Part shown: positions 52,037 through 54,580 of the stretch, in pieces
How positions within the stretch are numbered: position 1 is the first letter of the stretch
Layout of the letters: every line of letters begins with the position of its first letter
Assembly: GCA_903875225.1 (NCBI GenBank)
Contig: CAIQVJ010000006.1
Coordinates: forward strand, 99,380-163,379
Length of the DNA: 64,000 nt
Source: an uncultured Pseudomonadota bacterium
Lineage (GTDB): Bacteria; Myxococcota_A; UBA796; SXON01
Reading direction: 5' to 3'
Program-made: the position numbers and the translations under genes
The notes under the pieces: model-generated
Databases searched by the model: none
The model's input: the letters and a program-made list of their open reading frames with translations, nothing else
What the model was told of the DNA's origin: nothing

Positions 52037-54580
52037 ATGCATTTCACACACTGGAAAGTCCTCACCACATCATGCGCGCTCCTCGCGCTCGTTGGCTGCA
52101 ATGCCGGCGTGTCCAAGGACACCGGTATCAACAGCCAGGACGGCGTCGACGGTAAGGACGGCGTCGATGGCAAGGATGGCGTCGACGGCACCAACGGCAC
52201 CAACGGCACCGATGGCATCGACGGCACCAACGGCACCGACGGCGTCGACGGCACCAACGGTGTCGACGGCACTGACGGCGTCGACGGCGTCGACGGCGCG
52301 GACGGCGCGGACGGCGCCGACGGCGTCGACGGCAGGAACGGCACGAACGGAACGAACGGCACGAACGGTCGTGACGGCGTGGACGGCACGAACGGCACGA
52401 ACGGCGCGGACGGCGCGGACGGCGCGGACGGCGCGGACGGCGCGGATGGCTACGACGGCCACGACGCACACCAGGGCGATGCGCCCTGGGGCGTGAATCT
52501 GGAGATCGTCGCTGTGGACGGCGCCACGGGCGCTGGCGGCGCGTTCCAGGTGGGCGACATCCCGGTCATCACCTACTCGGTGGTGGACGACGACGGCATC
52601 TCCTACGAACCCGGGGACATGACCAGCCTGTACTTCATCATGTCCGGGCCGACCACGCACCCGCAGATCGCGATCTACTACTCGGACATGAACGCCAAGT
52701 CGACTTCCGTCGACAACCATGACGGCACGTACACCTACACCTCGGCCACCGCGGTCCCCTCCACGTTCCACGCGGTGCCGAACGACACGACGGCCATCGG
52801 CTCCGACGGCGGTGACTGGGGCGGCCTGCCCATCACCAGCGGCACCTACACGGTGGGCGGCGTCGCAGCCATCCGGGTGTACGAGGACGACGGCAGCTAC
52901 TGGTACGACGCGGGCAACTCGGAATCCCAGGTGCTCGTCGGCACGGCGACTGCGCTCGAGCAGTACGAGGTGGTCCTCGAGGAGAACTGCCAGAACTGCC
53001 ACGGGGATCAAGGCTTCCGGATGCACGGTGGCTCGCGTCAGGACCTGCAGCTCTGCCTGACCTGCCACGTCGACGGCGCCGAGGACCGGTACTCGGCCAC
53101 CGACGGGACGGTCACCCCGGGCACGACCATCGGCATGACGTCGATGATCCACAAGATCCACAACGGTGCGGATCTGACGAACGGCTACGAGGTCGCCGGC
53201 TACCCGGGCGACTCGACCGCAGAGGGGTACCCGAACTACAACCTCGTGGACTTCTCCGATGTCGAGTTCCCGTACCTCGAGAGCGGCTCGCTGCAGGCCC
53301 CCAAGAACTGTGACGCCTGCCACGGCGGCGCGGCGGACGGCGACGTGGACACCCGCCCGACGCGCCTCGCGTGCGGCGCCTGCCACGACTCCGTGGACTT
53401 CGCCCTCGGCACGAACCACGACGGTGGAGCCCAGTCGAGCGACGCCTACTGCTCGATGTGCCACAGCGCGACCGCGATCGACGGCTACCACGAAGACTCG
53501 CGGCAGGACCCGTCGGTCTGGTCGGCGCTCGGCCATGCGTCCGGGAAGCAGGGCGTCAACGTCGAGATGATCTCGGCGGTGAGCGGCTCCGGCGGCACGA
53601 GCTTCCAGCCTGGCGACACCATGACGATCAAGTTCTCGGTGAAGTACGATGACGGGACCCCCATCCCCTCCTCGTTCTTCAAGTACAGCTCGAGCTCGTC
53701 GACCTGCCCGACGGTCTCCGGCTCCGGAACGGCGGTCATCGTGGGCCCCAGCGACTACATGCAGCGGATCATCTACTCGCCCTCGGCGAGCAGCTCCGTC
53801 ACCATCGGCTCGGTCGGCAACGGCGGCGCCACGGTGGACTCCACCACCGGCATCTGGACCTACACGTTCTCGGACAGCGCGGGCACGGCTCAGACCCTCC
53901 CCACCACGTTCCCGTACCAGTACAACGACAGTGCGACGTACTACACCGACACCAACGGTGACCTGTACGGGCAGGACCTCCTCTCCGGCACCTACCGGGT
54001 CGAGGTCATGATGTACACCACGGTGTGGGCGGATCCGACCTGCGCTGTCAGCACGCGCAAGCGGGTTGCGGATGGCGGCGAGCTCGACGTGCTCGTGGGT
54101 GATGCCACGACGCTCGAGCCGCACGACGTGGTCACGGATGACTCGTGCAACGCCTGCCACAACGAGATCACCTTCCACGGTGGTTCCCGCAAGGGCGTGG
54201 ACTACTGCGAGACCTGCCACACCCGTGGCGCCACCGACTCGCGGTCCAGCCCGCCCACCAGCGTGTACTTCGCGGAGATGATCCACAGCATCCACGGCTC
54301 GGGTACCATCCTCACCAACACGTACAGCATCAACGGTACGAGCTGGGATGTCACGTTCCCCCGCCAGGACGGCGGTGTAGCGGCCTGCGAGGCCTGCCAC
54401 GGTGACAACACCGCATGGCAGAGCCCCTCGGAGCACGCCTGCATCACCTGCCACAACAGCGAGCCGGATCAGGCGCACGCCGCCATCAACACCGATGCGA
54501 CGTACGGCGAGAGCTGCGACGTCTGCCACGGCTCCGGCGCCGAGTTCGCCGTCTCCTCGGTGCACGAGTTCGTGAAGTAG
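52037..54580 (+). CDS. Decaheme c-type cytochrome lipoprotein (MtrC/OmcA-like two-pentaheme architecture) with an N-terminal collagen-like (G-X-Y)n stalk
   Basis: Lipobox LLALVGC. About 38 G-X-Y triplets (GVDGKDGVDG...GADGYDG). Ten CxxCH motifs in two groups of five: CQNCH, CLTCH, CDACH, CGACH, CSMCH, then CNACH, CETCH, CEACH, CITCH, CDVCH. Each group is preceded by a beta-rich domain of about 200 aa. Confidence 0.8.
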   Translation: MHFTHWKVLTTSCALLALVGCNAGVSKDTGINSQDGVDGKDGVDGKDGVDGTNGTNGTDGIDGTNGTDGVDGTNGVDGTDGVDGVDGADGADGADGVDGRNGTNGTNGTNGRDGVDGTNGTNGADGADGADGADGADGYDGHDAHQGDAPWGVNLEIVAVDGATGAGGAFQVGDIPVITYSVVDDDGISYEPGDMTSLYFIMSGPTTHPQIAIYYSDMNAKSTSVDNHDGTYTYTSATAVPSTFHAVPNDTTAIGSDGGDWGGLPITSGTYTVGGVAAIRVYEDDGSYWYDAGNSESQVLVGTATALEQYEVVLEENCQNCHGDQGFRMHGGSRQDLQLCLTCHVDGAEDRYSATDGTVTPGTTIGMTSMIHKIHNGADLTNGYEVAGYPGDSTAEGYPNYNLVDFSDVEFPYLESGSLQAPKNCDACHGGAADGDVDTRPTRLACGACHDSVDFALGTNHDGGAQSSDAYCSMCHSATAIDGYHEDSRQDPSVWSALGHASGKQGVNVEMISAVSGSGGTSFQPGDTMTIKFSVKYDDGTPIPSSFFKYSSSSSTCPTVSGSGTAVIVGPSDYMQRIIYSPSASSSVTIGSVGNGGATVDSTTGIWTYTFSDSAGTAQTLPTTFPYQYNDSATYYTDTNGDLYGQDLLSGTYRVEVMMYTTVWADPTCAVSTRKRVADGGELDVLVGDATTLEPHDVVTDDSCNACHNEITFHGGSRKGVDYCETCHTRGATDSRSSPPTSVYFAEMIHSIHGSGTILTNTYSINGTSWDVTFPRQDGGVAACEACHGDNTAWQSPSEHACITCHNSEPDQAHAAINTDATYGESCDVCHGSGAEFAVSSVHEFVK
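52136..52470 (+). repeat. Collagen-like triplet-repeat coding region, (GGC GxC GAC/AAC)n
   Basis: Seen directly: ggcgtcgacggcaaggatggcgtcgacggcaccaacggc... Near-identical 9-bp units recur across about 335 bp. Confidence 0.8.

Follow-up and report, generated by a model that had tools for sequence, protein, structure and literature searches.

The stretch of DNA analyzed here in its entirety (64,000 nucleotides of contig CAIQVJ010000006.1, hereafter “the window”) stems from a Myxococcota-like uncultured bacterium and carries, at positions 52037–54580 of its forward strand, a gene whose product is, by both hidden Markov model (HMM) and fold, a decaheme lipoprotein of the OmcA/MtrC family with a four-domain layout (beta/pentaheme/beta/pentaheme), in which an uninterrupted collagen-like Gly-X-Y tract separates the lipid anchor from the folded part. 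The family is a known one, and so is the architecture, which is common to dozens of unannotated proteins from metagenome-assembled genomes (MAGs) already labelled Pfam Collagen in the databases; what is new is a tether expanded to 36 collagen-like triplets, which is described in none of the papers found. The window has a GC content of 70%, and the open reading frame (ORF) at 52037–54580 (+), with a third-position GC content (GC3) of 0.91, shows the codon bias typical of a real gene; its ATG at 52037 is preferred over a GTG upstream at 51974 because the homologues P0001–P0003 start with MHIS, and the 847-aa product has the N-terminus MHFTHWKVLTTSCALLALVGC. The features of the gene, with window coordinates and strand, are:

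52037–54580 (+): complete coding sequence of the 847-aa OmcA/MtrC-family decaheme c-type cytochrome lipoprotein, with the stop codon at 54578–54580
52027–52032 (+): Shine-Dalgarno-like GGAGAG, GGAG lying 6 nt 5' of the ATG
52037–52099 (+): lipoprotein signal peptide, residues 1–21, with lipobox LVGC and Cys21 (52097–52099) as the predicted lipidation site
52100–52141 (+): non-periodic spacer NAGVSKDTGINSQD, residues 22–35 (14 residues), with Asn as the +2 residue
52142–52465 (+): collagen-like tract, residues 36–143, 36 uninterrupted Gly-X-Y triplets (PF01391, 60 bits)
52484–52951 (+): Domain I, beta-rich, residues ~150–305, starting at a conserved PWG motif (AlphaFold secondary structure, predicted local distance difference test (pLDDT) >=90)
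52952–53536 (+): Domain II, pentaheme, residues ~306–500, with CxxCH at 318, 340, 425, 446 and 472 (PF22113)
53537–54112 (+): Domain III, beta-rich, residues ~501–692, holding Cys557 and Cys669, a candidate disulfide (AlphaFold)
54113–54577 (+): Domain IV, pentaheme, residues ~693–847, with CxxCH at 704, 724, 784, 802 and 827

The initial annotation of this gene had proposed a lipoprotein signal, ten CxxCH sites in two groups of five and the domain I–IV layout of the MtrC/OmcA cytochromes, all of which were borne out: the lipobox Cys21 is conserved at >=90% in an alignment of 31 sequences (A1), and exactly ten CxxCH motifs are found in the 847-aa protein, five within residues 318–476 and five within residues 704–831. 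The NCBIfam model of OmcA/MtrC decaheme cytochromes, TIGR03507, gave 236.7 bits (E = 5e-70), which is above its curated cut-off of 209.3, and PF22113, which describes domains II/IV of MtrC/MtrF, was matched twice (131 bits over both stretches), the best stretch, residues 697–844, covering profile positions 2–176 of 176. The annotation had also named PF22112-type models, and this part of the expected HMM support did not materialize, as neither PF22111 nor PF22112 (the Shewanella-type domain I/III models) gave a match at E <= 1 in the Pfam search; PF22112 is present in MtrC-type relatives such as P0104 and P0113, and the beta domains of the window protein are, judged by their sequence, divergent from the Shewanella type. 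Among PDB sequences, the only significant heme proteins were MtrF (E = 1.9e-17), MtrC and OmcA, the matches otherwise being collagens.

The structure prediction pointed the same way. In an AlphaFold model built from alignment A1 (pLDDT ~85 over residues 150–847), two beta domains alternate with two helical pentaheme domains, as had been anticipated, although the beta domains, spanning residues 154–301 (~150 aa) and 508–687 (~180 aa), are smaller than the roughly 200 aa each that had been estimated. A Foldseek search of this model against the PDB returned MtrC, OmcA or MtrF as all of its top 13 matches (E from 6e-22 to 8e-16; TM-scores of 0.51–0.57, normalized to the target), and the next match had an E value of only 1e-3. 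Since TIGR03507, PF22113, the PDB sequence matches and the Foldseek matches all point to MtrC/OmcA/MtrF, the CxxCH modules are not of an NrfB-like or other unrelated family; the periplasmic NrfB-like family was accordingly rejected, NrfB-type or DsrJ-type signals being weak and sub-threshold next to the strong MtrC-family evidence.

The ten CxxCH motifs and nine further His residues are invariant in the 31 relatives of alignment A1, and His461, conserved within the clade, is a candidate for the tenth distal His beside the nine invariant ones. An eleventh conserved non-motif His, His145 (52469–52471), sits right after the Gly-X-Y tract in an H-x-G-D/E-x-P-W-G motif and is conserved in 23 of the 25 members of the Myxococcota clade. 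The CX8C motif of domain III is absent from the window protein, whose mature form has only two extra cysteines, Cys557 (53705–53707) and Cys669 (54041–54043), with 112 residues between them. Of the 31 aligned relatives, exactly 10 have both cysteines and 21 have neither; the pair is a candidate disulfide that may be the counterpart of the redox-sensing CX8C in domain III of MtrC. Compared with the characterized Shewanella proteins, the window protein thus shares the four-domain layout, the two pentaheme domains (PF22113 twice), the TIGR03507 match and its only significant fold matches with MtrC, OmcA and MtrF; it differs from them in the missing PF22111/PF22112 matches, in having the distant cysteine pair instead of CX8C, in its Myxococcota-like host, in the absence of adjacent mtrA/mtrB, in an identity of merely 15–18% in structural alignments and in the length of its tether (36 triplets vs. 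5–6).

The annotation had counted about 38 uninterrupted G-X-Y triplets; the tract is indeed uninterrupted, but numbers 36. Its X positions are occupied by Thr (12), Val (9), Ala (8), Lys (2), Arg (2), Ile, Tyr and His, and its Y positions by Asp (26) and Asn (10), i.e., Asp/Asn in 36/36 triplets, so that there are no Pro residues, 26 Asp face only four Lys/Arg, the net charge is about -22 per chain, and Thr occurs at X rather than at Y. The tract matches Pfam Collagen (PF01391) with the 60 bits given above, the gathering cut-off being 27.2. In the AlphaFold monomer the tract has a pLDDT of 30–44, and the monomer model therefore cannot decide the structure of the tract.

At the DNA level, Tandem Repeats Finder resolved the tract into 30.8 copies of a 9-bp unit (79% matches), and the codon table shows runs of identical 9-bp units (GGC-GCG-GAC, GGC-ACG-AAC and GGC-ACC-AAC), the signature of slippage, with 9-bp units gained and lost. 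The Gly codons (GGC 32, GGT 3, GGA 1) have undergone four synonymous and no non-synonymous changes (p ~0.01 under neutrality), and both the Gly and the Asp/Asn positions thus appear to be under constraint. Between P0003 and P0264, which are more than 90% identical, the tract differs by one triplet and its substitutions are all at X or Y, none at Gly; in other clusters formed at 90% identity, protein length is constant (three members at 779 aa, three at 842 and three at 760). Given this one-triplet difference and the constant lengths, the tract is adjustable rather than hypervariable.

As to how widespread such a tether is, a search with only the cytochrome part found 117 proteins, and an exhaustive search of 1.84 billion cluster representatives turned up 1,440 with E <= 1e-3, of which 135 reached E <= 1e-30. 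Triplets were then counted within the first 120 residues of the 221 retrieved relatives having at least nine CxxCH motifs: at least four triplets were present in 139 (63%), at least ten in 60 (27%) and at least 30 in three, the tract almost always starting just past the lipobox Cys. The same arrangement, a lipobox followed by a Gly-X-Asp/Asn run, is seen in the Shewanella proteins MtrC, OmcA and MtrF and the 11-heme UndA (PDB 4LM8, 4LMH, 3PMQ, 3UCP and 6R2Q), with MtrC, OmcA and UndA having 5–6 triplets of the Gly-X-Asp/Asn type after the lipidated Cys: in the PDB sequences, S. oneidensis MtrC reads C-G-GSD-GNN-GND-GSD-GGE, OmcA and UndA have GSD-GKD-GED-GKP-G, and S. baltica MtrC has GSD-GND-GNP-GEP. 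The window protein is therefore the long end of a family-wide continuum, as Shewanella MtrC/OmcA/UndA and 63% of the 221 relatives have a short tract, and the notion of an uncommon one-off fusion of a collagen-like stalk to a cytochrome had to be restated. None of the papers found in the searches ties a collagen-like or triple-helix tract to MtrC-family or other multiheme cytochromes, to extracellular electron transfer or to Myxococcota, and the papers devoted to the lipid anchor in Shewanella leave the character of the linker aside. That the N-terminal tether of OmcA/MtrC is a tunable collagen-like repeat, present in miniature already in the Shewanella type proteins, has apparently gone unnoticed. 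On these sequences the tether is ancestral, and the window tract is an expanded copy of a Shewanella-type tract of 5–6 triplets.

The closest relatives form an uncharacterized clade of Myxococcota MAG proteins (e.g., P0001–P0025, MES2639467.1 being P0004) with 38–69% identity over the whole cytochrome, from samples whose names suggest lakes and groundwater; the best match among GTDB species representatives is 59% identical. They share with the window protein the lipobox, the HxGDxPWG junction and the ten heme motifs, as well as a tract of 9–39 Gly-X-Asp/Asn triplets, which is Pro-poor and has Asp/Asn at 50–90% of its Y positions, so the Gly-X-Y segment is neither absent from close relatives nor variable junk in them. 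In the three closest ones it has 17–19 triplets, about half of the 36 in the window protein. Three clade members (P0019, P0026 and P0028; alignment A1, columns ~100–175) have the tract replaced by non-periodic acidic linkers of ~30–60 residues rich in Asp, Thr and Pro, and a linker of ~30–120 residues is kept in every full-length member of the clade. Tethers expanded up to 43 triplets occur in uncultured Myxococcota, Planctomycetota and other lineages, uninterrupted runs of 15–43 triplets recurring in many relatives while X and Y turn over, and Pro-rich expansions of the tract arose independently in other OmcA/MtrC lineages, e.g., in P0116, whose 43 triplets of GPS/GPT/GPQ have a classic bacterial-collagen composition.

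The reading we favor, at a probability of roughly one in two, is that the tract is mainly a flexible, strongly acidic, extended tether of adjustable length. Because the tract is Pro-free, with an all-Asp/Asn Y position and a charge of about -22, and because three clade members make do with non-periodic acidic linkers, a flexible acidic spacer is no less likely than a rigid triple helix. A second acidic tether after a lipid anchor is encoded elsewhere in the window, by a 187-aa lipoprotein (58595–59158, +) in which the lipobox LTTAC is followed by an (Asp-Thr)n stretch and which has no Pfam match. Together with the linkers of P0019, P0026 and P0028, this (DT)n lipoprotein suggests that an extended acidic spacer, and not periodicity, might be the selected property.

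Judging by the lipobox, and because c-type hemes are attached nowhere but outside the cytoplasm, a protein of this kind would be exported by the Sec route, lipidated on Cys21 and loaded with ten bis-His hemes. Its location would, by family precedent (PMC6929479, PMC9171617), be the outer membrane and probably the cell surface, since the lipid anchor keeps MtrC and OmcA on the cell (PMC6929479), where the two lipid-anchored proteins diffuse and swap electrons by collision (PMC9171617). Of a route to the cell surface by type II secretion, the sequence of the window protein shows the export signal alone. Through a collision exchange like that measured for Shewanella MtrC/OmcA (PMC9171617), the tethered head might pass electrons to and from other cytochromes, minerals or humic substances, and the tether, with an estimated reach (by our own polymer scaling) of ~8 nm as a coil vs. 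1–2 nm for a five-triplet one, could allow the cytochrome, though anchored in the membrane, to get past the layer of lipopolysaccharide (LPS) and exopolysaccharide (EPS), or to roam between partners. To judge from the operons of the relatives, which encode, among others, a 15-heme lipoprotein and an NrfH/CymA-like membrane cytochrome, the electrons would presumably come from a multiheme chain whose genes lie elsewhere in the genome.

Several points weigh against a plain flexible tether. Strict Gly periodicity runs through 36 triplets with only synonymous changes in the Gly codons, and the P0003/P0264 substitutions spare Gly as well; a purely disordered spacer has no need of such periodicity, which leaves room for a periodic structure. 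The restriction of Y to Asp/Asn in 36/36 triplets is likewise unexplained by a simple spacer model. Partner genes, moreover, are absent from the 64-kb window, and localization, heme loading, partners and redox direction are all predictions only.

The alternative that fares best, though it can be put forward only tentatively, is that the tract forms a true collagen triple helix, i.e., that three lipid-anchored chains build a rigid stalk of ~31 nm (108 residues × 0.286 nm) which holds three decaheme heads with 30 hemes far above the outer membrane, much as a stalk carries the globular heads of BclA or Scl proteins. Apart from the 36 uninterrupted triplets, the Pfam Collagen score above the gathering threshold and the purely synonymous Gly codon changes, it is favored by the uninterrupted runs of 15–43 triplets that persist in many relatives despite the turnover of X and Y, by the independent Pro-rich expansions (P0116 being an example) that resemble textbook bacterial collagen, and by the ability of bacterial collagens to make lollipop-like stalks without hydroxyproline (PMC8968730). 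The window tract indeed resembles Streptococcus Scl1/Scl2, Bacillus BclA and Legionella Lcl in placing an uninterrupted Gly-X-Y run of variable triplet number, with a Pfam Collagen match, between an anchor and a globular head. Known bacterial collagens, however, are stabilized by Pro in the X position, by Thr or Gln in the Y position, or by Lys/Arg–Asp/Glu charge pairs (PMC8968730), whereas the window tract has no Pro, Asp/Asn at every Y (neither Thr nor Gln occurring there), and 26 Asp vs. four Lys/Arg (~-22 per chain); it stays far below the cut-offs of the NCBIfam models for Scl2/SclB, Scl1/SclA and Lcl (56 vs. 325, 40 vs. 400 and 34 vs. 500 bits, respectively), its head is a redox protein and not an adhesin, and its anchor is an N-terminal lipid and not LPXTG or the exosporium. 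A trimerization domain was not detected by Pfam or NCBIfam, although the head or the lipid anchors might still nucleate trimers. Family members with short tracts work as monomers, MtrC being present 1:1:1 in MtrCAB (PDB 6R2Q), the three clade members with non-periodic acidic linkers do without the repeat altogether, and a rigid 30-nm stalk would keep the hemes beyond the electron-transfer range of a membrane conduit. The triple-helical tether that had initially been proposed is overstated, in view of the lack of Pro, the Asp/Asn at all 36 Y positions, the mere four basic residues, the failure to recognize a trimerization domain and the acidic linkers of those three clade members. In its fullest form, which we regard as doubtful, the proposal would have the tract fold, perhaps with bound cations, into a homotrimeric rod of ~30 nm that mounts three decaheme cytochromes past LPS and EPS, with a length tuned in 9-bp steps, and that evolved repeatedly in the OmcA/MtrC family (Asp/Asn-rich in Myxococcota, Pro-rich elsewhere); if true, extracellular electron transfer would here use an architecture not described before, with the cytochromes mounted on a stalk.

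In P0001 and P0002 (69% identical), P0004, P0005 and several GTDB MAGs, the gene is the last of a conserved multiheme operon, seen in the upstream 10 kb of the homologous gene at loci L001, L003, L006–L011, L013, L015 and L083, whose genes carry ~8, 9, 7, 2, 8, 15 and 6 CxxCH motifs before the decaheme gene itself. The 15-heme product is a lipoprotein whose N-terminal region is NHL-like and in which DmsE/MtrA-like segments score below cut-off; its gene and those of a 43–49-aa transmembrane peptide and of a membrane-anchored NrfH/CymA-like 6-heme protein lie just upstream of the decaheme gene, and one operon type among the relatives opens with a cytochrome-b/multiheme fusion. In these operons, an MtrB/PioB-type porin was not recognizable by family match; one 406-aa protein without a family match might be an unrecognized porin. 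The presence of several other multiheme proteins beside the relatives of the window protein recalls the Geobacter porin-cytochrome systems, and the outer lipoprotein cytochromes of the Geobacter OmcB/OmcC class are likewise multiheme lipoproteins, presumed to lie at the outer face of a trans-envelope conduit; these, however, belong to a different fold family and lack the four-domain MtrC layout.

Such an operon has some bearing on the possibility, in our view an unlikely one, that the protein is a tethered periplasmic relay whose anchor would lie in the inner membrane or the outer membrane's inner leaflet, and whose head would sweep or span the ~25–30 nm periplasm to carry electrons from an NrfH/CymA-like quinol dehydrogenase to outer-membrane components. 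The relatives' gene directly follows those of the NrfH/CymA-like 6-heme protein and the transmembrane peptide, the operons have no recognizable MtrB/PioB-type porin, and the fully extended tether is about as long as the periplasm is wide. A +2 Lys is the inner-membrane retention signal reported for Myxococcus, yet the +2 residue here is Asn, and Lys is rare at +2 across the clade; the 406-aa protein could be the missing porin, and all the characterized OmcA/MtrC-family proteins are found on the cell surface (PMC6929479, PMC9171617).

Still less credible is a functionally neutral, low-complexity expansion, whereby 9-bp slippage would have inflated a short ancestral tether and the extra length would have no adaptive role. 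The 9-bp array with its blocks of identical units, and the span of 9–39 triplets among relatives of 38–69% identity, are what slippage of this sort might leave behind, but length is stable within 90% identity clusters, every full-length clade member keeps its ~30–120-residue linker, the codons show conservation of Gly and of Asp/Asn, and long tracts arose independently in several lineages. A polyproline II bundle like that of the snow flea antifreeze protein was dismissed, as the PDB sequence match to 2PNE had an E value of only 0.67 and the tract takes on no compact fold in the model.

In contrast to most of its relatives, which end the conserved multiheme operon, the window copy is solitary. 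The gene is monocistronic, with a strong terminator-like hairpin of its own, and is followed by a repeat region:

54613–54648 (+): intrinsic-terminator-like hairpin and T-rich tail, with an 11-bp stem (54613–54638) containing 10 G-C pairs, 33 nt past the stop
54588–54873 (no strand assigned): repetitive extragenic palindromic (REP)-like palindromic and direct repeats, with GGGGGTGAACCCCC present three times, a 35-nt direct repeat and a 24-nt inverted repeat

A scan for sigma-70-like promoters upstream of the gene found none, which may only mean that the scan does not suit the organism. The neighboring genes are either housekeeping genes or without relation to the cytochrome; they encode a valyl-tRNA synthetase (ValRS), a response regulator, an M1 aminopeptidase (pepN, divergently transcribed), an M36+PA protease, an FAD/NAD oxidoreductase, dnaG and rpoD. 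In agreement with the initial annotation, mtrA/mtrB-like genes flanking the decaheme gene were not found in the 64-kb window, nor was there any other multiheme ORF, or even another ORF with more than one CxxCH. As the MAG CAYHRZ01 has both a solitary (L005) and an in-operon (L011) copy, the genome from which the window comes may hold a multiheme operon elsewhere.

An identical protein is encoded on an 80,395-bp ENA/NCBI contig (ERZ1426609) with the same genes upstream but different ones downstream (DAHP synthase, sugar transferase); the divergence from this contig falls in the REP-like repeat region 54588–54873, which is likely the point where the downstream context differs between assemblies. 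A tblastn search with the window's pepN, M36 protease, ValRS, dnaG and other neighbors against 84 related loci found no shared neighbors. The description of an isolated gene between pepN and an M36 protease consequently holds for the window copy and not for the relatives, and the adjacency to M36 is not conserved, being missing on the ERZ1426609 contig and in all of the 84 related loci; for the same two reasons, the M36 (fungalysin-type) protease was rejected as a dedicated partner that would cleave the tether.

Of the terminal components in microbial electron transfer to minerals and electrodes, the OmcA/MtrC cytochromes are understood best; the question of their passage through the surface layers of the cell that bears them is seldom raised. 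The length and stiffness of the tether would be a simple, testable variable for setting electron-transfer reach, as well as a design idea for engineered electroactive cells. The searches also flag a large, MtrAB-less clade of MtrC-like cytochromes, the 1,440 cluster representatives at E <= 1e-3 being mostly from MAGs, with sample names that point to lakes and groundwater.

Of the window's other genes, that of the M36+PA protease (55015–58547, +) has an apparent frameshift near its 3' end: frame 0 runs through ...EKGCGCATGPSPS (GCGC at 58459), and the expected MYXO-CTERM-like tail, LAPPAFLAVLIALAARRRR*, is found in another frame, with its stop ending at 58547, which reflects either an indel in the C-run at ~58475–58495 or a real pseudogene. 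The tail supports a Myxococcota origin. The window further holds genes for a large SPFH/Band-7 protein of 792 aa (GC3 0.95), a Ser/Thr protein kinase of 815 aa and an FG-GAP repeat protein of 763 aa, located at 30785–33163 (+) and 22387–27694 (-), all of which are typical Myxococcota-like content unrelated to the cytochrome.

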